Origin: Dictyostelium discoideum
Taxonomy: Eukaryota
Reading direction: 5' to 3'
Assembly (NCBI GenBank): GCA_000004695.1
Contig: CM000154.2
Coordinates: 3,968,001-4,032,000, forward strand
Length of the DNA: 64,000 bases
A model generated the notes under the pieces. The model had not been told where the DNA came from and ran no database searches. It was given only the letters and a program-made list of their open reading frames with translations. Positions 3,700-58,700 of this stretch are shown here, one piece after another. Within the stretch, counting starts at the first letter, position 1, and each line of letters opens with the position of its first letter. The position numbers were made by a program, and so were the translations under genes.

Positions 3700-4262
3700 T
3701 TTTTTTTTATTTTTTTTTTTTTATTTGTTTTTATATATATAAATCTACAGTAATATATATAAAATAAATATATTATTAAATATATGTTTTCTAAAAAAAG
3801 AAGAAAAACTAAAAAAAAAAAAAAACAAAAAACAAAAAACAAATATGACAAATTTTAATAAAAATAAATAAAAAAAAAAAAAATAAAAAAAAAAATAAAT
3901 AAAAAAAAAAAAATTTTAAAAAAAAAAAAAAAAATTCAAAAAAAAAATAGTTTAACGAGAAATCTTTTTTTGGCGCCACACCACACACTTTTTGATTGAA
4001 TGTTTAATAATAATGTATTAAACATTATTATCTTTATTAAAATATTTTAAATGTTTGGCTAAATAATAATTATCACCACATGATTGGAAAGTTATGATAC
4101 TAATTATAAAACAACCCAAATTCAATATTTTATTATTTTTTTTTTTTTTAAAATTTTAAAAAAAAAACAACTGGAAATTTTCTGGAAAAAGTTGGATTTT
4201 TGTGAAAATTTGGTAATGAAAAAGGAAAGGTTGGAATTGAAAGAAGAATACTTTTCCCGTTA

Positions 4263-4313
<51 letters not shown>

Positions 4314-4699
4314 AATAATCGTTGGCAAAAAAAAAAGAAAAAATAAAAAATAAAAAAAAATAAAAAATAAAAAATAAAGGGAAAAAAAAAAAAATTTAAG
4401 AAAAGTCTTTTGAATCTTTAAATTTTGAAGCTGTTATGTTGGAACTGATCTTGTTTTAAAACAAAAGATAATAATTTAGATATCATCAATTTTGTGCCCA
4501 TAAACAAATAGTTTTTATTTTTTTTTTTTTTTTTTTTTGTCAGTCCTGTTTTTTTTTTTTTTTTTTTTTTTTTCAAGTGATGATTATTTTATTTTTCATT
4601 TTTTTTTTTTATTTTTTTTTTGATTTTTTTTTTTTTTTTTCTTTAACCTCTTGTGTATTCACCTCACTGATGACGTTTGAACATTATTTTAATTCAAAG

Positions 4700-4735
<36 letters not shown>

Positions 4736-5177
4736 CAAAATCAGAAATAAAAAATAATCAATGGAAACATATTCTATCTTTTTTTTTTATTTTAATTTTT
4801 TATTTTAATTTTTTTTTTTATTTTTTTATTTTTTAAAGTTAAAAAAATGTTAATTCAAATTTGAAAAAATGGGATGGGTCGTTGAGATATTTCCAAAATT
4901 TTTTTTTTTTTTTTTTTTTTAACCCAAAAAATCGCATTGCAAAAATAAAAAAAAAAAAAAAAAATTAAATAATTAGAAAATTAATCAGCTGATTCTGTTC
5001 AACTTTTTTAAATGACAATTGAAAAGATTTTTATTTTAAAATTTTTTTTATTTTTTAATTATTTTTTATTTTAATTTTTTTTTTTTTTTTTTCATTTTTT
5101 TCACCATCAGTATAAAAACTTTTTTTTTTTTTTTTATTTTATTTTTTCATTTAGAATATTTTAGATTAAAAAACAAA

Positions 5178-7140
5178 ATGAGAGTTTTGTTACTTTTAGT
5201 TTTCCTCGTATTTTGTATCATTCCAGCAGCTCTCTCATTCAGAGACACCAACTGGAGCAAATACAACAGAGCTGGTAAAAAAGAAACTGTAGATTTCCGT
5301 ATTGCACTCAATCAAAGAAATTTAGATGTCTTAGAAAATACTTTATTGGATGTTTCTAACCCAGAATCACCAAATTATGGTATGTGTCAAAATAAAAAAA
5401 ATAAAAATAAAAAAATAAAAAAATAAAATTTTTTTTTTTAAGATTTAAAACTAATAAATATTTTTTTTTATTTTTATTTATTTAATTAAATTTAAATAAA
5501 ATCAAAACCAAAAAAAAAAAAAAAAAAAAAAAAAAAATTCTATAGGTAAACATTGGACTTCTGAACAAGTTGCTGATTTAGTTGCACCAGAACCATACGT
5601 TTCAAAGAAAGTTGCAAATTATTTAAAAAAGAATGGTTGTCACAATGTTGAAAATCATCGTGATTACATTAAAGCAACTGGTCCAGTTGATTCAGTTGAA
5701 AAGATTTTCTCAGTTGAAATGTACAATTACAAACATAATATTAAATCCGATCAAGCTATCATTCGTTCATCAGAAACCTATCAAGTTCCATTTGAAATCT
5801 CTCAATATGTTCACATTGTTTCTGGTATCTCTGAACTCCCACATCTCAAGAGTGGTCCAAAATCACAAAGATTAAGACCAAATCCAAAGGATTTCCAAGC
5901 TACTCCAGCCCCAGCTGGTCCAGCTGATCCAGGTATGGTCGTTCCACAAACCATCCAACAACTCTATGGTATTCCATCAAACTACCAAAACAACCAAAAC
6001 ACTTCACTCTGTTTAGCTGAATTTGCTGCAGATCGTTCATACCAACCAAAGGATCTCAAGACCTTTGCCGCCAAGACTGGTACTCCATTAATCAATGTTG
6101 TTAAGAATGTCGGTCCATTCCAACCAACTCAACCAGATCTTGAATCAACCCTCGACGTTCAATATGGTGGTGCCACTGCACAAACTGCCGATGTTTGGTT
6201 CTGGACTGTCAACGGTTGGATGTACGAGTTCTCATCAGATCTCGCCGCCACTGTCCCAGCTCCATACGTTGTCTCAATGTCATGGGGTTGGCCAGAACCA
6301 TTACAATGTCAACAAGGTATTGGTAACTGTACCGATGGTGAATCATCACAAGACTACGTCAACCGTGTTAACATTGAATTCCAAAAGATTGGTCTCCGTG
6401 GTATCACCCTTTTAGCTTCTTCAGGTGATCAAGGTGCCCCAGGTGATGGTAATCCATCATGTACCTCAAGAGATCAACCAATCTCAACCATTTTCCCAGG
6501 TGCCTCCCCATGGGTTACCTCTGTTGGTGCTACCATGTTAGCTGCCCCATCCACCAGCAATCCAAATCCAATCGATACTTCTGATGCCCCAGTCTGTGGT
6601 ATCCACGCTTGTGCTACCTCAACTCAAGAAGTTACCTGTTCATCTCCATCCGCTTTGATCACTACTGGTGGTGGTTTCTCCAACTACTCCCCACAACCAG
6701 CATGGCAATCAAAAGCTGTCAATGCTTACCTCAACTCTGGTGTTGTCTTACCAAACAAAAAATTCTTTAACGCTTCAAACCGTGGTTTCCCAGATGTCTC
6801 TGGTTTAGGTCACAACTACTACATTGTTGCCGCCGATCAAATGAACTTAGTCGATGGTACCTCTTGTTCATCACCAGTCATTGGTGGTATTGTTGCCTTA
6901 TTAAACAGCTATCGTTTAGATAATGGTAAATCAACCCTCGGTTTCATTAACCCAGTCTTATATGCTGCTTACGCCTCTAACCCAGCTGCCTTCAATGATA
7001 TCACCGTTGGTAACAATTATTGTACTGAAAGCTGTTGTGCTACCACTGGTTTCGTTGCCACCAAAGGTTGGGATGCTGTCACTGGTTTAGGTTCACCAAA
7101 TTTCAAACCATTATTATCATACATTCAATCTTTAAATTAA
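5178..7140 (+). CDS. Tripeptidyl-peptidase I (sedolisin/S53 family, CLN2-like), 2 exons: join(5178..5379,5546..7140), with signal peptide
   Basis: The N-terminus MRVLLLLVFLVFCIIPAALS is a signal peptide. Exon 1 ends ...SPNYG at a GTATGT donor (phase 1). Intron 5380..5545 ends at a TATAG acceptor, and exon 2 continues KHWTSEQVADLVAPEP... A pro-domain is followed by an S53 catalytic domain with the serine motif SGTSCSSPVIGGIVALL and many Cys/Pro. Confidence 0.8.
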
Positions 7141-8952: not shown

Positions 8953-15217
<6,265 letters not shown>

Positions 15218-35689: not shown

Positions 35690-37430
35690 CATCAAAAGGA
35701 AATATTCGATTATTGCCATATCTCGATTATTCAATATTTTTTTTTTTTTTTTTGAATTGGATAACGCAATTATTATTTGCTTCTCCTTGAGATGCTAGAT
35801 CTCATTTTATTTTATTTTTTTTTTTTTTTTTACAGGGTCTCTAAAAGAGGGGTTAGTTTACTTTTTTTTTTTTTTTTTTTTTTTTGTTTCGAATTTTGAA
35901 TTGTATTATTACTTTTGATTAAAACATCTTTTTTGTCCAAACTTTTTTCTAAATCTTTTTTTATTTTATCGTCTGGTTCGTGATTGATGTTTATGACGTA
36001 TTTGAATTGTTTTTTTTTTAATTGAGTTTTATCCACAATTTCGCTTATTTTTTGTAGGCATTTGTGTTGCTTAATATTTGTGGTGTTGTTTGTGATTTTC
36101 ATTTTATTTTCTTTCTATTTTTTATATTTAGACAAAAAAGATGTTTTAATCAAAAGTAATAATACATTCAAAATTCTCACAGACAGTATTAGTACAGTAA
36201 TCTATTTTGTAAATATGTTCGATGCAGAATTAAAAGGACAATTTATAACCACTCTAAGACCAAAAAATATGTATACGGATTTCGATTGGTATAAATCACT
36301 CACAGAAATAGAATGGGTAATAGAAAATGAAGGATGTAAACTAATTAAATCTGAAATTAAAGGCGAAACTCTAATTATCAAAACAGTGAAAAGAGTCGTA
36401 GAAGAATATGACACTATCATTGAACTAGACAATCTAACATTAATTGGTCACTCCAACAAAGGATGGAGAGATCAAACCTCATTACCAGAAAATCAAGAAG
36501 AAAACAAAAATAAAAAACAATCAGATGAACAACAACCAAAATCTACATCAGAACAAATACCAAAACAAGGAAAAAGAACAATCATTATCCCACCAATCAC
36601 CTCCTCATCTAATGATAAAACATTTATGGCCCTAGATGATACAGCTCAAAAGGTAATAGATGCATCACTAGAAAACGTAGATGAACTAACAAGAATAGAG
36701 AATGAGATCAATACCCAATCGATAAAAAATCAAGAAATTAAAACAAAATCAGAAAAACCTATTGAACCACCATCTCCATACAATACACCAATAAAACAAC
36801 ACGGCGAAACAAAGAGACTAACAACGGAAGAAAAACTTAGAGAGGTAAATGATATCTTCGACTTCACCAGCCCAAACACTGATGCAATAAGAAAAATAGA
36901 ATTCCCACTTTCAATCCCTTCAAATCAATGGTTCTTCTCCTCTCCAATAAAACATATCATGAGTTTCAGCCCAACCTATGGTACACCATCGAAAATTATC
37001 GATTCACCAAGTAAATTGTTAAACACACCAAAAAACAAACAACAAGACAAAACAAACAGGACCAACAAAACACCAGTCAAACCAAAATTGGGTGAATATG
37101 GACAAAAAAGCATAAAAACAAAAATGGATGAAGATATAGACAACTTCAACAAGGAAATTCTAAAACAAATCAGTAAATCAAAAAACCCCACAAACACACA
37201 AGACCAACAACACAACGAACAAAGTAAAGATCAGTTAGAAGACAAAATAAACCAGAAACTTCAAAAGGTAGATAAAAATCTACCCCAAATAAAACTATAA
37301 AGAAAAACACAATAAGAATAGGTGTTTGGAACGTCCAAGGATCCAACACCATCCAATCTGCCAGCATAATAAACACCGTATTAGACAACAACAAGCTGGA
37401 CGCAGCACTTCTAACTGAAACAAATAAAAC
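35690..37430 (+). mobile_element. TRE5-type (tRNA-upstream) non-LTR retrotransposon, 3'-truncated: 5' modules, intact ORF1 (36215..37300) and the first ~43 codons of ORF2 (37300..37430)
   Basis: ORF1 (MFDAELKGQFITTLRPKNMYTDFDWYKSLTEIEW...QKLQKVDKNLPQIKL) is a hydrophilic, basic protein of ~361 aa. The composition is lower in A+T than host genes. Directly after its stop comes the ORF2 start KNTIRIGVWNVQGSNTIQSASIINTVLDNNKLDAALLTETNK, the AP-endonuclease opening motif of L1-like elements (xxWNxxGxx...LQETH). The element stops about 48 bp before tRNA-Asp, the hallmark TRE5 integration distance. A 31-bp inverted repeat lies in the 5' region (35908..35940 against 36130..36160). Confidence 0.6.
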
Positions 37431-37477
37431 GATTATTCAATATTGTTATTTCTAATTATTAAAAACTTTCACATCAT

Positions 37478-37549
37478 TCCTTGTTGGTCTAGTGGTGAGG
37501 ATTTTCGCCTGTCACGCGAAAGGCCCGGGTTCAATTCCCGGACAGGGAG
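37478..37549 (+). tRNA. tRNA-Asp(GUC)
   Basis: TCCTTGTTGGTCTAGTGGTGAGGATTTTCGCCTGTCACGCGAAAGGCCCGGGTTCAATTCCCGGACAGGGAG is near-identical in architecture to eukaryotic tRNA-Asp-GTC. The anticodon loop is CTGTCAC. A T6 pol III terminator follows, and an ex-B box AATCGCAGGTTCGACTC sits at 37573..37589. Confidence 0.9.
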
Positions 37550-37572
37550 TTTTTTAAGATTCCAAAAAATAA

Positions 37573-37589
37573 AATCGCAGGTTCGACTC
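37573..37589 (+). promoter_or_regulatory. External B-box (ex-B) downstream of tRNA-Asp
   Basis: The sequence AATCGCAGGTTCGACTC sits just beyond the tRNA's T6 terminator. It has the same extended sequence and spacing as the ex-B box behind tRNA-Ala at 19021..19037. Confidence 0.65.
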
Positions 37590-37639
37590 TTGTTTAAGAC
37601 TATATTGATAATAATAAATAAAGGAAAAAAAAACCGTAC

Positions 37640-39407
37640 CGCGATCAAGAGGATACAAGATACACGTGAAAAGTAATTCATCCTTTTCTATCTTTAATCT
37701 CGGTCAATTTTAACCAATCTTTCAAAAAAAATCACCAATCCACCACGATCTACAGATCTAACTTACCAAATCGCCGATTCAAAGGAATCCCATCGAGATG
37801 AATTCCTACGCAGACGCGGCTAAAATGGCCAACCCCTCCACCCATATGGACGAGGCATCGGAGAACTTCATTAAGGAATTCTCCACAAAAACAGCAGAGA
37901 TAAAGGAGACCTACCCCAAACTATCAATAGGCCTCAAAGACATCTCCAAATACTGCGAGACCATATTGAACATGACTGCGCTCTCAACCTATGAGAAGAA
38001 CAACGGATTCTACCCAATTACTCGAATTCCCCAAAATGGATCTCAAGGGGTTAGAAGAAATGNNNNNNNNNNNNNNNNNNNNNNNNNNNNNNNNNNNNNN
38101 NNNNNNNNNNNNNNNNNNNNNNNNNNNNNNNNNNNNNNNNNNNNNNNNNNNNNNNNNNNNNNTTTACAAATGCATAAATCTGCAAATAATTCAATATACA
38201 TAATAAGTTGGATGGATCAAATCATCAACAAATCAATCTCTTCTCCATACCTTATAAAAATCAAAAAAGAATGGGAAAATTATGCAACTCAAATTGGACA
38301 TCTAAAAGATAAAGTTCAAATCCTACAACCAATATTAATAAAAAATCAAACCTCTCAAACATTAAACACAAATAATATTCCACTACCACCAACACTCAAA
38401 GAAATCTACTCGACAATACTCAACAATCACCAATGTAAATCAAAAGACTATATTGGCAAGAAATATTCAGATCTACTTCTTACTTCGCACCAACAATCAA
38501 TACAACTATTACGGAAATACACATACCACCAACTATTTGTCAAAATTCAAAAATTAAAAGATCCATAAGGCCGTGATACAATGCAAAGATTCCATGCTAG
38601 ATGTTTTCCGATTAATCATCTACACAACAAAGTTTGCCCCATTTGCAACAATGAAATGAATAATGATCCCTATGGTCATTTGTTTTTCAATTGTCAGCAC
38701 ACAATCAACTTCATAAACCACGACAAATTAAAATATTTTATATATAAAAATTGCAATGGAAACAAAAACTGGTCACTAACAAAAAACCAAACAATAAAAT
38801 TATTCACACTCATTTATAAACCACAAACAAACAACAAAGCATTTAAACCAGATCCAACTATCAATATTAATTTTCATTTTGCAGAAAACGCACAATATAA
38901 AAAATACAGGTTCAACTAGAATTATATAAACACAAATCTTGATCTAGTCAGAACACATGCATATTAGAACATAATCTCATTTGTTATTCACCAAATATGG
39001 ATATGGTTATGCAAATCATTATTTGGCATCAATATAACTCAATCAATTGACAATTGGAACAACTAAATAAACAACACAACACTAGATTATGATATATTAA
39101 AATCAAAATGACACAAGCTAATAAGATTGGAATATTCAAGAACATTATCAAACTTTAACCAATACTCAATTAAAAACAACCTCACAAAAACTCAAAAAGA
39201 AACCCAATGGTCTGAAACCATCAAAAAATTTAAAAAAGAATGGAGCATAAACACAAATGAACCAATTCCAACAATTACACCACCAATTAATTATTAATTA
39301 CCTAATCTAAAATAACATACCATTTTAAATTCACAAAAACTAAAAAACCTAAAATAAATAAATAAAAATAACATACTAATTGTATACTACAATAGTTTAT
39401 TTATATC

Positions 39408-40115: not shown

Positions 40116-43078
40116 TTAAAGGAAGAATAATTTATCAGATAATTGAGGCGCAGCATCAGCGAAAACTGTTCTACCAATTAAAAATGCCATTTTGTGTGCA
40201 AATTGACAAGTTGCTGGAACACGAACTATAAATTTTAAATTTTAAAGTATTAATATATATATATCAAAATAAAGATTATTTATATTATTTAAATTTAATA
40301 TTAAAATATTAATAATTACCAGATTTTTCAAAGTTGAAATAAAGATGACACATTTGGAAAGTAAATAATTGAAATAAATCAGCAGGCATTTTTTGTTCAT
40401 CCAATAAAACGTGATAATGAGTTGGATTGACAGAACCATTGTTAGTTACTTGAGAGACTAAAAAGAAATCATACCAATTTGGATGGGTAATTTTTGAGTC
40501 AACCAAAGTACCAGCTGGAGGATTACCAATTGGATCAGCAGTAAATAAACGTGCATTTGTATTCTTTTTGACAATGACATACATTAACTTTGGTTTTATA
40601 CCCCAAGAAGATGGTGTTTCAGCAAAACCTTTTTTCATTGCAGCAATTTCAGATCTATTGACAAGATCTAACATACCATCACCAACACCATCACGATAAA
40701 CTATAACCAATTCTGGTAAACAATTATTGAAACTAAAATATTTTGACATTGCTTCTTTAGTTGCTTCTTCAAGAGAATCAATGATTTCTTTACCAGGACG
40801 CTTTTGAACAAAAGATCTTGAGAAATACTTTTGAAATTTATCATCGATAGTTGCAACGAATCCAACTACTGAATGACCTCTCATATCAGAGTTATGACCA
40901 ACATCGATACCAATGATCATTGTTTTCTTTGGAATGACACCATTGAATATTTGTTGATTGAGACCCCATGGTGCATAACCTAACTTTGCAATTACTTGTT
41001 GTTTTAATTTATTGGTTACTGATCTACCTTTATAAAAAGTCCTTGGGAAAATACATTGAGTTAAAACTTTAAATTGAACCAATGATTTTCTCTTTATCTC
41101 TTTATAGATTTCTGGTTGATTTTGTGGAATTAACATTAAAAAGAATTGAATACCATGTGTTTTAATTGCATTCTCCATGATATTAGAGTATTGAATTGGT
41201 CTTTTATCGCGTGGGTCTGTATAACAAATTGTTGTTGGTTGTGACATTCCAGTTTCATTTATGAAATTATAAAGATTGGTTTGGCAATCTCTTGTTCTCT
41301 CATATTCATCACGATCAACAACAAATGCCCATTTAATATTATTCAATTGACGTTTATTATCATTTGGTAAATTCTTTGGTGCACTTAAAACATAACCATC
41401 AACTTTTAAAGCTGGTTGATATGTAATTCCCCATGGTTCTAATGATTTTGAAACTTTTGGATTATTATTAATATCTGAAATAAAATTACTCAATGTTTGA
41501 TATCTTTGACTTGGATCAAAATTTGAATGTTTTGCTAATTCAGCCATAAGTTTAAAATTTTTACGCATCTAAATAATAGTATTTATATTAATATGTTTAA
41601 ATTAATTAATAAGAATAAAAAATAAAAAGAACAAACTTACATGATCACTTAATCCAGTTAAAAATGTTAATTCTGGAATTAAAAAGATAGTTTGTTTAAT
41701 ACCTCTGAATTTAACTTCAGATTTTAATAATGGTTGACGATAATCTGTAATTTTATGATTTGGATAATTTCTTTGATAATATTGTAAAAATGTTGTTGTA
41801 CCATCCATTTTATCATTAACTCCACTTGACCAAGAAATATTAGAGATACGATAGGTTTTATTATTATAACGAGTTAATACAATTGAATTTATAATTTCAT
41901 CAAAACATCTATCTTTGTCATATCTAAGGTATTTAATTCTATCTAATACAGTTTCAGATCTAACAACTTTTGAACTTGTATCTGCTAATAACATTGTACC
42001 AGATTCTGTTGAAACTACAGATGTACTAAAACCTTTCCAAACTTCAAGTAAATAATCTTCAAATTTAATTTTATTTATTGGTGAATAGTAATTTCTACCA
42101 ATAAGTGAAAATCCCATTTTTCTCATATTCTATATTTATAATAAAAAAAAAAAAAAATAAAAAATTATTAATTATTAAATTTAAAAGAAATAAAAAATAA
42201 AAAAACAAAAAAAATAAACTTACATTTTTTGTAATAATATTAAAAAATTGAGAATTAACAGATGATTTATCCCTATGGTTAACTTCTTTTACTTTTCTAA
42301 TAAATATTTGAACACCATCAATTGATTGTGAATTAATATTGATATTAATCGGAGAATATAAAATTGAATCACCATCATAGAAATAAAATTCTTTTGATAT
42401 GTTATTTAATGAAAGTAATTCTCTAATTAATTTACGTCTCTTGTCAAAAGTAACTTGTGGTGGATTAAAATCAATACGAAATTCTAGTGATTTCCTATCT
42501 GAAATAACAATTGGAAAGAAATTTGAAATTAAAGAAATTTGTTTACCTTGAACAGTTCTTGATTTTGCTGTAACAATTGCAACATTTTCAATGTCAGAAT
42601 CTTTAACCATATCTCTTCTTGAAATTCTTGGAACTAATAGATTTGTATTTGTTGTATTTGTTGTTGTAGTTGTTGTAGTTGTTGTTGTTGTTGTTGTTTC
42701 AGGTGTTTGAGGTTGTGTGATTGGTTTTACTTCTTGAAATTGTTCTTCAAGTGGGATACTGTTATTTTGTTTTCCCCAAGCATTTTGAGTTTGTCTTGGT
42801 TGGAAATATTGTTGTGGTTGTTGTGGTTGTTGTAGTTGTTGTTTTTGTTGTTGTGGTTGTTGTGGTTGTTGTGGTTGTTGTGGTTGTTGTTTTTGTTGTT
42901 GTTTTTGTTGTTGTTTTTTTTGTTGTGGTTGTTGTGGTTGTTGTTTTTGTTGTTGTTGCGGTGGTTGTTGTTGATAATTATTATTATTGGTTCTTTGTTT
43001 CAATGGTGATTGACTTCTATCAATTTCTTGATGAGATTTTGGTTCACCATTGAATCCTTTTTGTTTTTTTGGGATCAT
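40116..43078 (-). CDS. Argonaute/Piwi-family protein (PAZ + PIWI), 4 exons: complement(join(40116..40225,40320..41568,41641..42129,42224..43078)), ~900 aa, poly-Q/poly-T N-terminus
   Basis: PAZ region ...ISNISWSSGVNDKMDGTTTFLQYYQRNYPNHKITDYRQPLLKSEV. PIWI domain with the catalytic residues ...MIIGIDVGHNS...LPELVIVYRDGVGDGMLDLV...NPTHYHVLLDEQ. A final 110-nt exon (GTAATT donor, TTTATAG acceptor) encodes VRVPATCQFAHKMAFLIGRTVFADAAPQLSDKLFFL*, which matches the Piwi C-terminus [21 protein letters not shown]...NRLYYL. All junctions conserve phase and the exon lengths sum to a multiple of 3. Confidence 0.8.
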
Positions 43079-43705: not shown

Positions 43706-44887
43706 TTATGAATTAATTTTTTGAATACTACTTGAATCGATATCAATATTAGAATTATTAATATTATCATTTTTTGGATATTTACCTTCAACACCCATTT
43801 TATACATTTCATAATTTTTTAATTTAATTTGATCATAATGATATGTAATACATTCATGTGCTTGAGTATCAAGCCAACCACCTTTATCTTTAATCAATAA
43901 TCTTGTAATAACTCTTGAACAAATTGCACCAACTATTGTAATCAAAACTGTAATATATGAACCAATGTCTGAAAGAATTCTAATTGCAAGTTCAAAATTT
44001 GATTCAGTTTTTTCTGTTATCACTGCAACATCATTAAAATAAATTGAATAAGATAAAGTAAATGCTCTTGCAACACTTTGTTTAATTTGCCTTGAGTTAC
44101 TAGTTGCAACAGAATTAATAAACACTTCTTTTTCATCACCAAATGTTTTTATTATTTTTTTTGATGTTCCCAATGTAAATTGTTGTGATGAATCTGAATA
44201 ATATTTATCATCTCCAAACCATACGGAAATTGGGAAAGATGGAACTCCAAGATCAAAATAACCAGCAACTACATTTATCTAAAAAATTTATTTTATAAAA
44301 TTTTCATTATTATTATTTTATTTATTATTATTTATTTTTTATTATTTTTAAAAATAAATATTTTACCTCTAAAAACTCTTTTTCTCCCAAAGCCATTTCA
44401 TCAGTTGAATAATAACCAACGAAATCTGGTGATATTAAAACAAAGGTGGAATTAATTGCATATGCACAATCAAGATCCCCAACTAGTAATTTATTATTAT
44501 TAACACAATTTACCAATTGCTCCATAACATAATTACCCTTTTCATCGTAATAATATCTATTAAAAATTACAGAATATAAAAAAAATAATGAAATTTCATA
44601 GGTATTAAAAATAACATAAAAATGAGGAGGCTATAAATTTATTAGTATTTTTTTTTTTTTTTTTTTTTAAAATAATAACAAAAAAATGATTTAAAACCCA
44701 CATTTATTTTTTCTTGATAATCTGCAGTTATTGAAACAACTCTATTTGTTATATTCCTTTCAATGATAAAGTAACAAATTACAGTAAAACTTAAAACCAA
44801 GAGAATATGTTCAAAAATTTTTATTCTATATTTTTTTAAGCTTACTTTATCATCATTTGGAATACCAAAAATTCTATTGAACACCAT
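43706..44887 (-). CDS. Hypothetical two-TM membrane protein, single-module member of a paralog family, 3 exons: complement(join(43706..44278,44367..44630,44702..44887)), ~340 aa
   Basis: N-terminal TM helix IFEHILLVLSFTVICYFII, then ERNITNRVVSITADYQEKIN with a donor at the position equivalent to the paralog's. The module ...NFELAIRILSDIGSYITVLITIVGAICSRVITRLLIKDKGGWLDTQAHECITYHYDQIKL aligns with both repeats of the gene at 45215..47500. Splice sites are weaker (GTGGGT and GTAAAA donors), so boundaries are approximate. Confidence 0.5.
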
Positions 44888-45214
44888 TTTATAATATTTT
44901 TATTTATAATTTTGATGTCTTAAAAATTTATTTTAAGTAAAAAAAAAAAAAAAAAAAAAAAAAATTAAATCAAAAAAAAAAAAAAAAAAAAGAAAAAAAA
45001 ATTAAAATATCTTTGTAAAGAGAGTATTCATAATTTTTTCAAGTTGATGAAAACTTAAAAAAAAAAAAAAAAAAAATTTTAAAATAAATTTACAAAGATA
45101 TTTTTAGAAGATCAATTTTGTTATTTTTTTTTTTTTGATTAACGCATTTTTAATTTTTTTTTTTTTTTTTTTTTTAATTTTTTTTTTTTTTATATAAACA
45201 AAATAAAAAATACA

Positions 45215-45434
45215 ATGGGTAGATTTCTTACAAATTATTATAATAAAGTTTTTAATTCACCTAAAAATTTCGACGATATATCTTCAAAAAAAACAAGAAA
45301 CTTTTTAATGTTGTTATGTTTTTTGGGTATAATTCTTTGGATTATTATTATTATTGTAGTAGTAAAAGATTCATTAAATAGATTAACTTTTATGACCAAT
45401 GAAATTGAAAATCAAATTATTGTAAAATTAATAA

Positions 45435-45478
<44 letters not shown>

Positions 45479-47500
45479 CCTAATATTTTATTTATTACAA
45501 ATAGATTCCAAATTTAATTTTTACATTTTATAAAAATGTTTCACAATATGCAATTAATTCTCCTTCAGGTGAAGTTATTCCAAGTAATATAGAATTTTCA
45601 AATGGTTATTTTTGCCAAATTCCAGAAAATTCCATAATTGAAAATTGTACTAATACGGATTTGTTAGCTATTGATAAACAATTTGATCCCATTAGAAATG
45701 AAATTTATGTAAAGAATTTTAATCTAACATTTGAAAAAGAATATTTTAATGTAAGTCATTAAAATCTAATATTTTAAAAAAAAAAAAAAAAAAAAATAAA
45801 TAAATAATAATAAAAATTATAAAATTTATATTTAGATTAATATTGGACAAGATTTAAAGAAATACAATGAATCATCGCCTTATGATACTTCTTTTACAAC
45901 ATTTGGAATGAATATTAATAGTTACAATTTCTTTTTGAATGGTCCAATCGATTTACAAGTAATGATAAAGAAAACAAAAAGAATTGATAGACATCAAGAA
46001 GAGACAATGAATTTTATTCCAAGTGTATTGGGTGCTGGAGAAAAAAGTAGCACATGTCCTGATTTCGGTGATAGAAGTAGAGGTTATCTTAATTGTTCAA
46101 CTGTATCGGTATCAATTGTTTATGAGTCTAATATTGTCCCAACTTATAGAGAAGAAACAAATATACAATTATTTAAAAGAATATTAAAAGATATATTTTC
46201 AATTGGTAAATTGATATTGACCTTGATGGGATTAATAATTATTTATTATCAAACAAAGTTTTTATTTAAAGATCAAACAGCTTGGTTTGATAATGATGTA
46301 AGAGATGCAGTTTTATTTCATTTCAATTACCATGAATTGGATCCAGCCGATGATGAGGAAAAACCACCAGGTTTCTTTGCAAGACAATTATCTAAAATAA
46401 AATCTTTTTTTTCTAAAATAATATCTGCAATCAAATATGTAGCCTGTTGTTGCTATCGTTGCCGTAGTAAACCAGTTCCAAAACCACCAAAAACCTTAAC
46501 AAGACAAGAAAAGATTGCAAAGGAAACCAAAGGATCAGGTTGTCCAATATTAAGATTGTTTCAAGGTATTCCAAATCAAGATAAGTATAGTGGTTCAATT
46601 AGTTTAATTAATTCGATAAAATGGCTTTTGTTGGCTATTGTTGTAATTATATATGGTGTTTTCATTGCTATTCAAGATTCTAATAATAGATTAATTATTT
46701 TAAAGTTGGATAATCTTGATAAATTAGAAATTCCTGCAATTCAATTTAACTATACTGGAGACAATTTCTGGTTAAAAAATTATCATGAATATTTACCATT
46801 TGGTCAAAGAAAGTTTTGTGGTATTAATAACACTGAACCAATTTATAATATCAAAAAATGTACATCCACCAATGGATTCCCAAATCAAACTCTAACTCTT
46901 AACGGTGATCATTTAACAAACTTGGAAATTAAAAATGATACAATACAATTAAAAGAAAATCAATACTATGGATTCATTATTGAATCATCTGTTGCACTTT
47001 GGGATTTTTTCCCATCATTTGAACATGTTCATATTACAATGAACATAAATGGTATAGAGTATTACTTAAGACCATTTTCAAATAATACAATTCATTTAGA
47101 GAAAAATGTCTATCATTATAGTAATGGTACTTCAATCACCTCTTATAATCCTAGAATTTTTCAAGCACAAGATGAAATTAATTATCTTGGTAAAAATGCA
47201 AATTATACTTATTATTATGGTAACACCACTGTAAACTTTTTCTATTCCTCATCAAGTATTAAACATACATTTATTGAAGGTAAAACTGATTTAAGATTCA
47301 GAATTGTTTCTGATATTCTTGCATTTTTGACCCCTGTCAAAATTTTCTTTACTAATTTCTTTACATACTTGGTCATTCGTTTCGCTAATAAATATTCAAC
47401 CGCCCATGTTGATTCATCAATAAGAGAAGCAATTCTTTACCATATGAGATATTATGAAAAATATTCAAAAAAATTTAAAAAAACTGGAAAAAGTGTTTAA
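45215..47500 (+). CDS. Hypothetical multi-TM membrane protein carrying two tandem copies of the module found in the divergent neighbour, 3 exons: join(45215..45421,45505..45750,45836..47500), ~705 aa
   Basis: N-terminal TM helix NFLMLLCFLGIILWIIIIIVVV, then KDSLNRLTFMTNEIENQII. Module copy 1 is ...IQLFKRILKDIFSIGKLILTLMGLIIIYYQTKFLFKDQTAWFDNDVRDAVLFHFNYHELD. Module copy 2 is ...DLRFRIVSDILAFLTPVKIFFTNFFTYLVIRFANKYSTAHVDSSIREAILYHMRYYEKYSKK. Exon 2 is placed by frame and phase only, so it is less certain. Confidence 0.5.
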
Positions 47501-47566: not shown

Positions 47567-48572
47567 TTAAAGAATTAATTCCATTTCAAATTGCGAAACC
47601 CAAAAATCTAAACCAATTCTTTTATTAAAGAAATTTTTTAAATTTTCATAACCTTCTTCAATATTTGAAGCATTGAAATTAATCGATTGGAATTCATTTG
47701 ACATTGTATAAAATAATTTAGTTGCTACATTTTTATTTCTAAATGTTGGTGTTACATAAACTTGTCTAATTCTTTGGCTTTGAGAATGGATTGATAAAAA
47801 CCCAATAATTTTATTTGTTTTATTATCTTTTGCAATCCAAATTTTATTAAATCCCATACTAAACTCTCTTTGAATCACTTGATTTGTGTTTGACCAAGAT
47901 GGGTTCATTCTTGGTTGTTGTTGTTGTGGATCATCATTTTCAATGAAATTAATAATATCTTCTGTTAAATTTTCAACTTTTTCAATTATAATATCATTTT
48001 CATTGTTACTATTTAAATATTTTAATAATGAATCTCTATTTAAATCACCTTTATATGAATGTAATTCTCTTGTAATTTTAAATCCACAATTTTCATAAAC
48101 TTTAATTGCACGTGGATTGGTTTGAATAACTTCTAATACTATACTTTTAATACCATTCTCTTTAAAGGTTGATTTCATTTGAGAAATGGATTTCTCAATT
48201 AATTTATTACCTCTTGCTGTTGGAATAACTCCTGTTGCTGAATTATATAATTTTGTTGGATTTTTAAAATTATCTGGTGCAAGTAAAACAAATCCTTCCA
48301 ATTTATTTTCATCATTCTCATTATATATACCTATAGAATGATCCATTGATATACCATCTCCTTGAATTTTTTGTGATAATGATTCTTCCGTTAAAACAAA
48401 TTTAATCACATAATCTGAAAATGAAAAATTAAATACATCTAAAAAAAAACATAACAATAAAATAAATATTTGGAAATTTTAATTTTATAAGAAAAAATTA
48501 ATTTAATTATTAATTAATACCTGTTAATTCTTTTAAATTAAAGTTTGGTCCAATTATTTTAATTGTTTTCAT
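47567..48572 (-). CDS. Tandem GNAT-domain N-acetyltransferase, 2 exons: complement(join(47567..48438,48521..48572))
   Basis: Acetyl-CoA binding motif A in GVIPTARGNKLIEKSISQMKSTFKENGIKSIVLEVIQTNPRAIKVYENCGFKI. A second GNAT fold is IGFLSIHSQSQRIRQVYVTPTFRNKNVATKLFYTMSNEF. A 52-nt first exon (MKTIKIIGPNFNLKELT) joins through a GTATTA donor and TTTTTAG acceptor in phase 1. Confidence 0.65.
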
Positions 48573-52335: not shown

Positions 52336-52733
52336 TTATTTTTTCATATCACCAGTAGCAGCTTCTAAAAGGATAATTGTATCACCATCTTGATCATCAT
52401 TTCTAATTTGTTTTTTGTTTACAATTGGAACTTGGAAAGTATGGAAATAATCTAAACCCATATAGGTATCTGAATATAATTTAACATTATAGTTTGTAGA
52501 GGATTGGAATGGAGCTTTTGGAATTTTAAAGTTTGCAGTAACTGAATTTGAAATCATTTGTGGTACTCTCTTAAATCCAATCATTTGTTCTTTTTCATCT
52601 GTTAAAACCATAATCCAACCTTCATCTTTATCTTTACTATAAAGTGGTGCAAATGCATGACCATTTGAGAATTTCTTATTCTCTCTTGTAACTTTAATTT
52701 TAATATTAAATTCTTGACCTGAATAAACTATTG

Positions 52734-52764
<31 letters not shown>

Positions 52765-55700
52765 CTTTTTGTTATTATTATTATTATTTTCATTATTATT
52801 ATCATCATTATTATTACTATTATTATTTGTATTAATAAAATATTCAATTTTAACTTTTGGTAAATGATCAATAACATTTAAAGTTTCTTTAATTTGAGAA
52901 TCTGAAAGACCAATATTAGTTAAAGATAAATGAATTTTATCTCTTGGAATTTTTAACATATCAGAAAGATTTGAGATTTGTTCACCATTTGATAAGATTA
53001 AATTTGAAGAGAGGAAATCAGCAAAATCTTTGTTGATATGAGGTAAAGTCATTAATGAAGAATCATAATCCCAACGACCTTGAACCAACATTTGTAATAA
53101 TCTAATTACTTGGATGGCAGTAGCGAAATAACCATATTCAAAGGAGACATCAATCATAGCTTGAAGAATACGAATACCTTGATCCAAAGCAGACTTTGTA
53201 TCGGTGGTAAAATCTGTGATTGGTAATGGACATCTTTGGAAATGAGCTTGTAATAGCAAATGAACTTTGGTATGAGAATCTTCATAGTTTCCAATTTTAA
53301 TTGGAAGATTTTCATTCAACTCTTGATTTAGAATCTCTTCATTGTGTCTTACTGGGAATTCACTATATTCGGCAGCATCTGATAATACTCTTAGGAGGGT
53401 TTTAATATCACTATCACGTTTAATATTATCAGAGAAGTTTTGAACGGTTTTATAATTCAAATAGTAGAAAGAAGCGATTTTACCCATTGACATTGGTATG
53501 ATTTCATCGTATTCATTGATTTCAATACAACTTGATTGTTCGAGATCGGCCAATGTTGAATCCAAGAGATCAGAGAGATATTGATTTACAGCTTCGACAC
53601 TATTATCCTCGAGACCATAATAAGATGGTGATACAACCAAACGACGGAAAAAGAAAGTATTGACCAAATAATTGATTGCACCTTGTTTTGATTGAATTGT
53701 ACCTGAAACGATCTCGGCATTCAAATGGTCATGTAAAAAGTCTTTGAGATGGCTTTCAACTGGGAATGGATCGTAAAGGAATTTCTTATAGAATTGTTTC
53801 TTTGGTTCATGAACCATTACCATTGCTTTACCTTCTTTATCGAATTGTGGACGACCTGCACGACCAATCATTTGAAGTACATCAGTCAATGGGAAATCGA
53901 CATAACGTTTGGTTTTACCATCGAAATATTCGGTACCTTTAATGATAACTAAATGGGCGGGTAAATTGACACCCCAAGCCAAAGTACTTGTAGAGATTAG
54001 AATTTGAATTTTATTCTCACCAAAGAGTGATTCAACGATTGTACGATCACCATCATTTAAACCAGCATGATGCATACCTATACCAAATGAAAGTGTATGT
54101 CTAAGATGTTGATCTTTAACACGTGCCAATGTTGGTTCAATATCAAAACCCTTTTGAATCCATTGTAATGGATCATTATCAACCACCAAATAAGAGATTA
54201 AATCCAATGCGGTTAAACGAGTTTGACGACGACTGCTTACGAAAATTAAAACTGGTTTCTTTGGTGAATAGGTTGCGATAGCGGCAAATGAAGGTTTATT
54301 CATAGTTTGCATACGTGGACAATAGTTTTTACCTTGGAAACCTTGAATATGAACTTCAATTGGTACTGGACGACAAGATGGTCTAAAATTGAAAAGACCA
54401 ACTCTATCAATACCCATCCACTCTGAAAGATCAATTGCATTTGCCATGGCAGTTGATAAACCTACTACACGAATATTAACACCGGTTTGTTTAGAAATTA
54501 ATTTCATACGACTTACAATTACCTCTAAAATTGGACCACGTAACTCACCAATTAAATGAATTTCATCAATGATTAACAATGATACAGAGGTTACATAGGA
54601 ACGATTCTTCCAATTTCTACTAATACCATCCCATTTCTCTGGTGTTGTTGTAACGATATCAGCATTTTGTAATGCAATCATATTTGGAGTGTAATCACCA
54701 GTTAACTCTACCAATTTCTTACCAAGTTTCTCTTGAAATTTAACCTTCCAATCATTCATTCTTTCACGTACCAATGCCTTCAATGGTGCAATATAAACCA
54801 CTTTCATATGAGGTTCATCTCTAAATACTTTAAACATTGCTAATTCTGCACAAATGGTTTTACCTGAACCAGTTGGTGAACCTAATAAAACATTATTATT
54901 TGTATAATAAAGAGTATGAAAAACTTGAGTTTGAATTGGATTGAAATGAGAGAATTTGAATAATGATTCAAAATCTTTATTTTTCAATGCTTCCTTTGGT
55001 AATGGTTGTAAATCTAATAACTCTGTATTTACGACACGATCTTGTTGTGGTAAAACTAAATGTCTGAATGAAATCTCTCTAATACCTTCGGAACCTAACC
55101 AACGATCGGAAATATAATGTAAAAAGAATTGTGATGGCATTGGATTTGGTAATGGTATGATACAAGTCAAAGTGATTGGTTCAGTTTGATTATAGATCTT
55201 TTTAGTTAACATGAAATATTCACTATGGAAAATGTATTGACTTTCATTATCTTGTACCCAAATCCAAAATGGTTGACTATCACCATGCATCTTGTCATTC
55301 CAACTAAACATTGGTATCAATGTCATATTGATACGAATGATATTTGCAGTGATTGGTTGAACTTGAATTTCAAAATCCAATTGTGGGAATTGTTGTGCAA
55401 TCTTTCTAGTGGTTTTTGCAATCAATTGATTACCCAAAACAAATGACAACTCCCCAATCTCCATATCACAAATTCTTTCAGGTGTCCAATCTCTTTCTTC
55501 AATCTTTCTAATGGTATCAAGTGATAATACTTTTGCTTGACGTAATGGTGATTCGAAATGCCAAAGTTGATGATCAACCATCTTGCAAAGATCTAAAATG
55601 GTCTTACTAACTGTGCACCAACCTTTCTTTAAAGAGATTTCAAAAAGACCTCTTAAAATTCTAGAACTATTTTGAACGGTATAATTTGAATCACTAACTA

Positions 55701-58700
55701 AACTAAAGCCATCAATATTTGCACGTGAAAAGAAAGCTTGAAGTAAACATTTCACTTTGGAATGACTATCCAAAACTGTCAATTCATAATAACATTGGTT
55801 CTCGGCTAATTTATCCAATTCAGTTGATTCCTCTTCACGTAAGGTAATATTTTCAAACTCGGATGAATTTGATAAAATATTTAAAACTTGATCTTGACCC
55901 AATTGATCATTCAACATTTCATTGAAAGTTTCAATCGATGGATGTTTAATATAATAATGTGAGGCGATTCTACCCAATTCTGTCATACCTAAATTTTCAG
56001 ATTGTTCATCGAAACGAGTCATTTTACATTGTTCCAATTTCTTTGCTGCTCTAATGATAATTTCACGTTTAAACTCTTCAAGTTGTGGATCTTTTGAACG
56101 TTGAGAACTTGGTATACCATACACCAATGGATTTTGAAGCATTCTAATGAATAAATAGGTATAACTTAACCAATTGACAGCTTCATTAACATTTGATACT
56201 GTTCCTAAAACAATCTCTGCATTTAAATGATCCTCAAGATTTGTAATGAATTTACTTTCAATTGGCATAGAACTTGACATTAATGAAAGATAATGATCCA
56301 ATTTATCCTTTGAAGTTAAAAGGAAACCTTCACCACTTGTATCGAATTGTGGACGACCAGCACGACCAAAGATTTGCATAACATCTGAAATTCCAAGATC
56401 CATAAAACCACCATTCTTTGCATTGTAAACTTGAGTACCTTTAATGATTACAGTATGAGCAGGTAAATTTACACCCCAAGCCAAGGTTGCTGTACAAACT
56501 AAAACCTTAATGGTACCATTGGCAAAGTATTTCTCAACCACATTTCTATCAGATCTTAGGAGACCAGCGTGATGTACGGAAATACCATGTTGAAATAATG
56601 ATCTAATCTCTTTACTCTTTACTTTTTCAAATTCTTTCTTTGCACCAAATGATGGTTCCTCATTAGAGAAACGGAAATGCTTTTCTTTTGCCATATCACT
56701 TAAAATCTCTGCACTCTTTACAGTATCCTTTCTAGAATGAACAAAGATCATAACTTGATGACCTTCCTTTAATGATTTCTCCAATCTTTCATAACATAAT
56801 TGATTCATATTATTTTTCATAACCATTATACCTTGATTATCTTTAACACCAATGAAATTTTGAGTTAAAGGTACTGGACGATAAGATGAATCGAAAAAGT
56901 GAGTACCTGAAGCTGGTGCTCTAATAAATCTTGCAACATCTTTATAGTTTGGTAATGTTGCTGACAAACCAACGATACGAATCATCTCTTGAGTGGTTTC
57001 AACTTGACGAAGTGTTCTTGCTACAATACACTCCAATACTGGACCTCTCTCTTCATGAAGTAAATGAATTTCATCGATAATGATTAATCTAACCAATTTT
57101 GTCAATGCAACATCACTACTTTTTCTTGTGATAACATCCCATTTCTCTGGTGTTGTAACGATGATTTGAGTCTCTTTAAGTTCCTTTTGAGTCAATTGCA
57201 TATCACCAGTTAACTCTTTTGATACGATACCTAAATATTTCAATGAATTTGAAAATTTCTCAACCATTTCACTTGCTAAAGCTTTCAATGGTGCAATATA
57301 AATGATCTTGAAATTATCTTTATCCAAATAACCATATGGATTGATATTGCTTTCAATCTCGTGTAAAATTGTCAATAAAGCAATATTGGTTTTACCAGCA
57401 CCAGTTGGAGCTGAAATTAAAATATTTTCATTACTCTTGTATGCAGATTCAAATACACGACTTTGAATACGATTTAATTTCTTTATACTACCAAATGCTG
57501 CTCTACTAATCTCTGCAATTGATTCTCCAATCTCTATTAATTTTTCATTATCTGCAAATGGTTTAGCCAATGAATATGGTACCATAACTTCAGTATGTGT
57601 GGTTTTCTCTGTTCTAACTGTACCCTTTGGCAATGCAATCTTACCACCGTATGGTAAATCTATACAAACATCACCACCTGTAAACTCTTTTTGATTATAA
57701 ATAGTTGGTTGTTCAAATGATTGTTGACTATGATCAATAAATTTAATTTGTTCTTCTTGATATTGTTGTTGCTGTTGTTGTTGTTGATCATTTTTATATC
57801 TCTTTTTATCATCTTTTTTTAATTGCTTATCAAAATCTTTTTCATCTTTTGTTTGAATTGAAAAATGATTTAAAGGACCAGAATGATTCGATGCTCTATA
57901 ACCAGATACAACAGAACCCAAAATACTATCACGATACTTTATGATATCTGCAATTAATTCTAAATGATCGAAACCTAATAATCCAATCATATCCTCTTCA
58001 ATTGTTTCTTTTTTATTTTTTAAAAATGACATTATTGTATTATAAATCTCTTCTGATGGTATACCTAAACCAATTGAAATTACACTACATTCCTCTCTTA
58101 ACCATTCAATTGTATAAGTGCTATCAACTACATTATTTGATTCTAAATTATTTGAACCACCAGCTGCTGCTAATTTCTTTAATTTTTTTGATTTTTTAAT
58201 TTGACCAGGTTGATGAATTAAAACCATATCACTTAGAGGTGTATTTATAAGTTTTTCTTTTTCCTTTTCTTTTTGTTCATCAAGATTATTATTAATTTTT
58301 GTATTGATGAAATGATTGATTTCATCGAAAATTGACATTTCATCATTATCTTCAAATTGTAATTGATATTTCGATGGTAATTGCCATTCCATTGATTCGA
58401 AAGAATCAATGGTTTGTACTGATTCATTGGATGCTTTTGAATCTGATTCAAATGGATTCTTAATTTGTAATAAAAGGCCAACTTGTTCACTTAATTTATT
58501 ATACATTGCTACTTTGAAAAATGAATGAAAAATTTGACGTAATGATTCACATTTTGATGCTTTATCTTTATGTGGATTTGCAACAATCATAAATGTTTCA
58601 TAAACTGCTGATGCAATCTCATCTGATGGTATTTCATCATCACCAATCATCTCTAAAACAATCTCTTTAAATTTATTAAAAATTTGTCTATTCTCTTTTT

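Follow-up and report, generated by a model that had tools for sequence, protein, structure and literature searches.

The locus described here is a pair of membrane-protein genes in a 64,000-nucleotide stretch of the Dictyostelium discoideum genome (GenBank assembly GCA_000004695.1, contig CM000154.2, positions 3,968,001 to 4,032,000 of the forward strand), hereafter the window, from the first letter of which its coordinates are counted. Gene M, a single-module gene of the type termed S below, lies on the minus strand (43706..44887) and encodes 340 amino acids; gene P, a two-module fusion, lies on the plus strand (45215..47500) and encodes 705. Both models follow from reading frames and GT..AG joins, in an AT-rich setting (G+C content about 14–30% in the window). 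The coding exons of M are 44887..44702, 44630..44367 and 44278..43706 (including the stop codon), with introns at 44701..44631 and 44366..44279; those of P are 45215..45421, 45505..45750 and 45836..47500. The two genes together contain four introns, each in phase 0 and each with GT..AG ends. The initial annotation had described one intron at an equivalent position in the two genes, and in fact both match: the first falls at ..QEKIN|PPHF in M and ..NQII|IPNL in P, the second at GEKEFLE|INV and EKEYFN|INI. Orthologs in annotated Dictyostelium genomes measure 326–340 amino acids for M (56–90% identical) and 690–702 for P (56–88% identical), with a coverage of 99–100% in both cases. The closest database proteins are those of D. 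cf. discoideum (88–90% identical) and of D. discoideum isolates (83–84%). The independent annotations of five other genomes agree with our models in lengths and joins, and the weak splice donor of M, GTGGGT, is GTGAGT at the same site in two related species (D. cf. discoideum, L001, and D. firmibasis, L002).

The start codons, at 44887 (M) and 45215 (P), are separated by a spacer of 327 base pairs (bp; 44888..45214), in keeping with the distance of about 330 bp given earlier. The spacer consists of an A-run, a complex core of ~110 bp and a T-run, a layout that is usual for Dictyostelium; blocks of the core are kept in D. cf. discoideum and in part in D. firmibasis. We presume that it is a bidirectional promoter, and co-regulation of M and P is plausible. 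Within the core, at 45008–45103, the sequence ATATCTTTGTAAA recurs ~70 bp away as its exact reverse complement, TTTACAAAGATAT, which looks like an inverted repeat of 13 bp. It is only partly kept in D. cf. discoideum, A/T runs overwhelm the repeat finder, and we make no claim for it.

Each module comprises, in order, a conserved motif preceding the first transmembrane helix (TM1), TM1 itself, a β ectodomain of ~200 amino acids, a second transmembrane helix (TM2) and a cytosolic WxD…RExxxYH motif. Two transmembrane helices, intracellular termini and a large extracellular loop are supported by hydropathy, by the helices of an AlphaFold2 model and by the placement of N-x-S/T glycosylation sequons and cysteines. 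In M, the cytosolic pre-TM1 motif FNRIFGIPNDDKVSLKKY (44828..44881, minus strand, as are all features of M) is invariant among orthologs and is followed by TM1 (residues 24–42, 44762..44818; from hydropathy, and helix 14–47 in the AlphaFold2 model of an ortholog). The ectodomain (residues 43–249, 43982..44761) is all-β, contains both introns and carries a Cys104/Cys117 pair and sequons at N45 and N122. It leads into the pre-TM2 segment and TM2, RILSDIGSYITVLITIVGAICSRVITRLLI (residues 250–279, 43892..43981; helix 244–278 in the ortholog), which form the most conserved part of M: conservation among orthologs is strongest in the last strand, the pre-TM2 segment and the start of TM2, where A235–Y258 are invariant. 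The cytosolic signature after TM2, KDKGGWLDTQAHECITYHYDQ (residues 280–300, 43829..43891), takes the form (S/T)AW(F/V/I)D…RE(A/S)(I/V)L(Y/H) across the family.

P repeats this layout twice, with all features on the plus strand. Domain boundaries from hmmsearch place the N-module at residues 1–382 (45215..46528), with its pre-TM1 motif at 45239..45295, TM1 at 45302..45364, an ectodomain with 5 sequons and 4 Cys, TM2 at 46178..46267 and the post-TM2 motif at 46268..46342. The C-module, delimited in the same way and by its homology to M and the N-module, spans residues 383–705 (46529..47497), with the pre-TM motif LRLFQGIPNQDKYS at 46550..46603, TM3 at 46616..46672, an ectodomain with 8 sequons and a Cys479/Cys493 pair, TM4 at 47300..47386 and the post-TM2 motif at 47387..47464. 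A Cys pair occurs at the equivalent ectodomain position in all three modules. The 13 sequons of P all fall inside the two predicted ectodomains, with none in the N-terminus, linker or tail. The modules are joined by a Cys-rich cytosolic linker of about 70–90 amino acids containing the cluster ACCCYRC (residues 354–360, 46442..46462). Both ectodomains of P are thus predicted to lie on the same side of the membrane, with the modules connected through this linker. All P orthologs have a run of 3–6 Cys in the linker (for example CCCYCCC, CCCCCC and CCCGCCGCC), and the cluster resembles a palmitoylation site. There are basic residues within TM2 of both P modules (K272 in the N-module and K649 in the C-module). 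A TM2 lysine of PAC sets its anion selectivity; we draw no conclusion from those of P.

That M and P are divergently arranged paralogs, M holding a single module and P a tandem of two, as first proposed, is borne out by the gene models and by pairwise and profile alignment. Composition-adjusted BLASTP aligns the C-terminal segment of M with the first P module at an expectation value (E) of 1e-10, and M with the second P module at E = 0.019. An unexpected third match (E = 0.001) pairs the N-terminus of M (RIFGIPNDDK) with the middle of P (residues 391–451, RLFQGIPNQDK). Profile–profile comparison of ortholog sets with hhalign aligns M and the two halves of P with one another over 250–310 columns. 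In global mode the E-values are 5e-12 (M versus the P N-module), 9e-10 and 6e-15, and in local mode 2.7e-10, 4.7e-7 and 1.5e-12; reversed-sequence controls reach only 0.036–0.51. The homology of the C-module with both M and the N-module extends over about 290–300 columns. M and P are therefore paralogous, with a module similarity that is statistical, not compositional. The C-terminal motif that had been read as the module occurs verbatim in its three copies (M residues 250–300, P 266–320 and P 640–694). However, because the N-terminal motif also matches and the profiles align over 250–310 columns, the repeat unit is the entire two-helix protein of about 320–380 amino acids, including the N-terminal motif, TM1 and ectodomain. 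P is thus a head-to-tail, in-frame fusion of two complete units. The contrary view, that the modules are alike only in the composition of I/L/F/Y/N-rich Dictyostelium proteins (genomic GC content is ~20%, and protein composition is skewed), or that the joins are wrong (the GTGGGT donor of M is non-consensus), so that no true paralog pair exists, is refuted by the controls and has practically no probability left: the BLASTP match at E = 1e-10 is adjusted for composition, hhalign gives E = 1e-7 to 1e-15 where reversed sequences give 0.04–0.5, the odd donor reads GTGAGT in relatives, and protein lengths and joins match those annotated independently in the five other genomes.

An exhaustive search with a dictyostelid profile hidden Markov model (HMM) of 1.84 billion representative proteins returns 27 members at E<=0.001. 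The family is thus small and, in contrast to the lineage-specific family first suggested, not strictly confined to dictyostelids: its members come from Dictyostelium, Tieghemostelium lacteum, a transcript of Vermamoeba vermiformis, a TARA Oceans scaffold and short, unassigned metagenome contigs. Intron-less, single-module members occur beyond dictyostelids: P0042, the transcript from the tubulinean amoeba V. vermiformis; a gene on the TARA Oceans scaffold (L011, 3163-4203); and a gene on L010 (4767-5918). The last lies near two GNAT acetyltransferase genes, a setting that resembles that of the pair in the window. A match in Artemia (P0036) is spurious and is explained by a repeated RILSDISLS motif. 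A profile search with an alignment of divergent members returned only two of its own inputs, and tblastn of the whole window found no paralog besides M and P.

The pair arrangement recurs. The window and four other group-4 genomes together hold ten head-to-head pairs of a single-module and a two-module gene, at no fewer than four paralogous loci (at least 4), with gaps of about 250–430 bp; every partner was confirmed as a family member by six-frame HMM searches, and all group-4 single-module genes looked up have a two-module partner. In D. cf. discoideum (L001) the gap is 326 bp and at the orthologous locus of D. firmibasis (L002) it is 427 bp; a second D. firmibasis locus (L005) holds a tandemly duplicated pair, and D. 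dimigraforme has pairs at three further loci (L003, L006 and L007), one of them duplicated. Beside the true pair on L003, 4259-5531 (+) gives weak family HMM matches (E 1e-3 to 4e-6) in and just past a 261-amino-acid gene call (4259-5478), which may be a decaying family member. The adjacency is not universal: Tieghemostelium lacteum carries P0016, its two-module gene, and P0020, a single-module gene, on one contig but apart from each other, and a further single-module gene of this species, P0018, has no partner. A 684-amino-acid neighbour of the T. lacteum single-module gene was ruled out as a family member by HMM.

By neighbour joining, a simple method applied here to a difficult alignment, the modules (328 columns, 100 bootstrap replicates) separate into four groups. 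All partnered single modules, including P0020, form the S clade (bootstrap 83), all N-modules, including P0016-N, the N clade (87), and all C-modules, including P0016-C, the C clade (96). A fourth group (64) unites P0018 with the metagenome single-module proteins that keep ENaC-like motifs. Every pair thus contributes a single module of each of the three types, S, N and C. The branching order is identical in the S and N subtrees, which suggests that the pair was duplicated as a unit. Since each of S, N and C has a Tieghemostelium member, the fusion and the three module types predate the split of dictyostelid groups 3 and 4 and have been stable since, which contradicts the earlier picture of a family observed partway through internal duplication.

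The initial annotation recognized no known domain in M or P. Pfam likewise finds none, whereas the predicted structure matches the DEG/ENaC/ASIC and PAC/TMEM206 channels by two methods. The AlphaFold2 model was made of an M ortholog (P0009, 90% identical) from an alignment of 15 sequences that covers the three module types. Its predicted local distance difference test score (pLDDT) is 71 overall and about 80–88 when the ectodomain is taken alone; the five models are consistent with one another. Helix 14–47 passes straight into the first strand, the ectodomain is all-β, and a long last strand (220–241) is continuous with helix 244–278. The model thus has a palm-type β core with β1 continuous with TM1 and the last strand with TM2, and both its fold and its subunit size correspond to those of PAC/TMEM206. 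Foldseek against the Protein Data Bank (PDB) ranks PAC/TMEM206 chains in all of the top 20 places (E 2e-10 to 3.5e-7, probability 1.00; template-modelling (TM) scores 0.38–0.51), followed by PDPNaC1, ASIC1a and BRTNaC1. A second structure-comparison method also ranks ENaC/ASIC/PAC first, including 6wth (described as an ENaC ectodomain). P2X served as a specificity control: its topology is alike but its fold is different, and its Foldseek TM-score is 0.13. The modules of M and P are therefore predicted to share the fold of the trimeric DEG/ENaC/ASIC and PAC/TMEM206 channels.

Fainter traces of the same relationship are found in sequence, most clearly in a distant clade. P0026, a metagenome protein, matches the dictyostelid-only profile over its full length (E = 9e-11). 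An N-terminal fragment of it corresponds to positions 26–73 of the Pfam ASC profile (PF00858), that is, TM1 and the FPxxTxC motif, and a C-terminal fragment, collinear with the first, to positions 404–444 of 455, that is, pre-TM2 and TM2; the family consensus matches the ASC profile at E 0.09. The post-TM1 FPx(V/I/L)TxC and pre-TM2 LLSxxGG motifs are recognisable in this clade (ELPFPYLTFC and SQLGGAISLVIG in P0026, FQFPNMTFC in P0025 and KDIGGFLGALF in P0034). Of these motifs, M and P keep only the proline (the invariant P64) and the R-I-L-x-D-I-G/x-S stretch. For profile comparison we used human ASIC1a and ENaC α, β and γ sequences, which give full-length PDB matches with bit scores fitting near-identity, and a human PAC sequence that agrees residue by residue with its PDB chain. 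Aligned by hhalign with the ASIC1a and ENaC profile, the family gives two collinear local matches, at the TM1/β1 and β12/TM2 elements, with scores of 33 and 28 (P 0.003 and 0.014) where the reversed control scores 13. Overall, these ASC comparisons are weak (P 0.003–0.03, with reversed controls at 0.04–0.8). Against human PAC, the family scores 17.5–22.1, no better than reversed controls (13.0–21.4), and no match to PF15122 was found in about 30 family members or consensus sequences.

We propose, with a probability of roughly 0.55, that M and P represent a divergent, channel-like family with the ENaC/PAC fold and work as a pseudo-heterotrimer of 1+2 modules. On this view the family is small and amoebozoan, and each of its two-pass modules has an ectodomain that is probably glycosylated and disulfide-bonded, with a conserved helix in the cytosol after TM2. 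ENaC itself is built from three different subunits and, to our knowledge, all solved proteins of the ENaC/PAC fold are trimers in which the TM2 helices line a central pore. M and P would be transcribed together from the shared 327-bp spacer, and one M and one P would assemble into a complex with three ectodomains and six transmembrane helices, comparable to ENaC α–β–γ. Gene fusion would thereby fix two positions of the trimer, and co-expression would supply the third. The topology of the fusion fits this arrangement, with TM2 of the N-module ending in the cytosol, the linker remaining there and TM3 returning outward. In such an assembly, the three TM2 helices would line a central ion pore, gated via the strongly conserved region where the last β-strand meets TM2. 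This is the junction that couples the ectodomain to the gate in ASIC and ENaC. While paralogy, module architecture, gene models, the recurrent 1+2 pairing and the age of the three clades are demonstrated here and the fold is predicted, we only infer a trimer-like 1:1 assembly of M and P, channel activity, ion selectivity, a gating stimulus and co-regulation. The module count of 1+2 and the three module clades are circumstantial evidence for trimeric assembly; because one plus two makes three distinct modules encoded around one short shared spacer, a pseudo-heterotrimer is the simplest explanation. A stricter version holds that, in group-4 amoebae, the fused N–C chain and the divergently co-transcribed S chain form an obligate 1:1 pseudo-heterotrimer, which would be the first natural trimeric channel of a 'two-thirds plus one-third' design and the first of its class in Amoebozoa, and would mean that the ENaC/ASIC/PAC fold is of much greater age and wider occurrence among eukaryotes than phylogenies now suggest; we put this forward only tentatively, as the less probable form of the proposal.

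A number of observations weigh against the proposal. The fold rests on one AlphaFold2 model of an ortholog, computed from a shallow alignment of 15 sequences, and its TM-scores to channel structures reach just 0.4–0.5; the two-module ortholog P0001, modelled as a single sequence without an alignment, gives a pLDDT of 34.7. In sequence, M and P have no match at E<=10 to ASC (PF00858) in Pfam and none to TMEM206 (PF15122); the sole match in that scan, to Jagunal (E 0.5), is not usable. An HMM of 21 family members, and P0026 alone, find nothing among PDB sequences at E<=10. The ASC match of P0026 (E = 2.4e-4) is the only one, and its 20.7 bits lie below the gathering score of 23.6. The hhalign probabilities for the comparisons with channel families are low, at 4–12%. 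At about 200 amino acids, with 2, 4 and 2 Cys in the three modules, the ectodomain is about half the DEG/ENaC size and has no Cys-rich thumb or finger. DEG/ENaC channels have a His-Gly gating motif before TM1 and a G/S-x-S selectivity filter in TM2. The motif conserved before TM1 here is F-x-G-I-P-N-x-D-K, without HG, and the three TM2 helices (..IVGAICS.., ..LMGLIII.. and ..FFTNFFT..) share no G/S-x-S. As to the pairing, compact Dictyostelium genomes commonly have short divergent spacers, and the two Tieghemostelium genes P0016 and P0020 lie ~14 kilobases apart and not head to head. Since clear sequence matches, the thumb and finger, the HG motif and the filter are all missing, we do not claim membership in PF00858 or PF15122 at the sequence level; judged from these comparisons, M and P probably belong to a family of their own, new and highly divergent, that has the ENaC/PAC fold.

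Two other explanations deserve consideration, and each of them we hold to be unlikely. In the first, the fold is indeed ENaC/PAC-like and M and P act separately, M as homotrimers and P in oligomers of its own (for example, three P chains making two pores, or some other stoichiometry), the head-to-head order being a relic of how the genes once duplicated locally in a compact genome, retained because they share a promoter. There is precedent in that ENaC, ASIC and PAC subunits are often homotrimeric (ASIC forms homo- and heterotrimers, PMC8880099, and the PDB matches include structures of PAC homotrimers), and the Tieghemostelium S and N–C genes are not adjacent, with P0018 a single-module protein lacking a partner. 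Against this stands the constancy of the arrangement: all ten group-4 pairs, at four or more paralogous loci (at least 4), keep one S beside one N–C gene, the S, N and C clades have been distinct since before the Tieghemostelium split, and the S and N trees share their branching order. Moreover, if its chains carry an even number of modules, a three-fold assembly would be awkward to build without a single-module partner.

The other explanation, to which we assign a similarly low probability, dispenses with the channel altogether: M and P would be lineage-restricted two-pass proteins whose β-sandwich ectodomain acts in adhesion, as a receptor or, in the manner of Erv41/Erv46, as a receptor for luminal cargo, and the likeness to ENaC/PAC would be generic or a bias of AlphaFold2. 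The lack of an above-threshold sequence match to any channel family and of the hallmark ENaC pore and gate motifs is in its favour, as is a weak match (E 0.038) of the Pfam ERGIC_N model to a TM2 fragment of the family consensus. That match, however, is not collinear, since it aligns the N-terminal region of the model with the C-terminal transmembrane helix of the family, whereas the sub-threshold ASC matches are collinear and fall at TM1/β1 and β12/TM2. Both structure-comparison methods place only ENaC/ASIC/PAC on top, by a clear margin. Conservation peaks in TM2 and at its junction with the last strand, where these channels gate. Erv41/Erv46 (ERGIC2/3) obtain a structural score below that of every ENaC/PAC match and yield no collinear Pfam ERGIC_N or COPIIcoated_ERV match; M and P do not match their luminal β-sandwich fold.

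Compared with known systems, the channel-like pair that we favour would differ from each in several respects. With PAC/TMEM206/ASOR (PF15122), the proton-activated chloride channel, described mainly from vertebrates, M and P share the predicted fold without detectable sequence similarity. PAC assembles as a homotrimer from the product of one gene, whereas the amoeba family has three old module types, two of them fused, and the WxD…RExxxYH motif after TM2 is specific to it. The DEG/ENaC/ASIC ectodomain, of about 370 (350–400) amino acids, carries a Cys-rich thumb and finger that are absent from the amoeba ectodomain of about 200. P2X receptors, which occur in Dictyostelium, are likewise trimeric, with two transmembrane helices per subunit and a β-rich ectodomain, but differ in fold (see the TM-score above), and M and P have no Pfam P2X_receptor match. 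We know of no fused two-subunit gene in the DEG/ENaC family. A full-text literature search found no DEG/ENaC, ASIC or PAC/TMEM206 relative described in Dictyostelium, Amoebozoa or Vermamoeba, and no naturally fused two-subunit gene described in any trimeric channel family. Beyond animals, DEG/ENaC proteins have been reported only in Heterokonta and in a filasterean relative (PMC10507113, PMC9822975). If the structure prediction is right, M and P would represent a new family that combines the architecture of ENaC/PAC with a 1+2 arrangement of genes that has no precedent.

DEG/ENaC channels are viewed as almost exclusively animal, and a relative in Dictyostelium, Tieghemostelium and Vermamoeba would change that picture. 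It would place the origin of the architecture at least as far back as the common ancestor of Amoebozoa and Opisthokonta, or else point to an ancient gene transfer; in both cases, the fold would be available in a genetically tractable organism. The 1+2 pair would also make it testable how heterotrimeric channels fix subunit order and stoichiometry, as gene fusion seems to have set two positions out of three in the course of evolution, and promoter sharing the remaining one. Should the channel idea fail, there would still be an old and stable pair of fusion and partner in an uncharacterised family of membrane proteins.

On the M side, the neighbour of the pair is a gene for a Piwi/Argonaute protein whose N-terminal region is long and Q/T-rich (40309-43078, minus strand); on the P side it is a double-GNAT acetyltransferase gene (47567-48457, minus strand). 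Both flanking genes are also present in D. cf. discoideum, and the acetyltransferase side is kept in D. firmibasis. There, an extra gene of 1072 amino acids (L002, 3027-6245, minus strand), absent from the window, lies in the interval between the acetyltransferase and the P ortholog; it has no Pfam match and was rejected as a family member by HMM.

Elsewhere in the window, an open reading frame (ORF) of 473 amino acids (5719-7140, plus strand) encodes a TPP1/sedolisin-type peptidase, with Pfam Peptidase_S8 and Pro-kumamolisin activation domains and a PDB match to TPP1 at E 8e-49. Its GC content of 44–48%, against about 15–25% elsewhere, makes it a striking compositional outlier. A tRNA-Asp(GTC) gene (37477-37550) has GC-richer ORFs on both sides (36062-37300 and 37798-38568) that have no Pfam match, and the region 36062-38568 may be the remnant of a tRNA-gene-targeted retroelement. 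Further genes encode SSRP1/FACT (2075-3283, minus strand), a fragment of a Sec7/BIG-type ARF-GEF (11858-15217, plus strand) and a Brr2/SNRNP200-type helicase (52336-58650, minus strand); the housekeeping genes around the locus are consistent with a normal chromosomal context.

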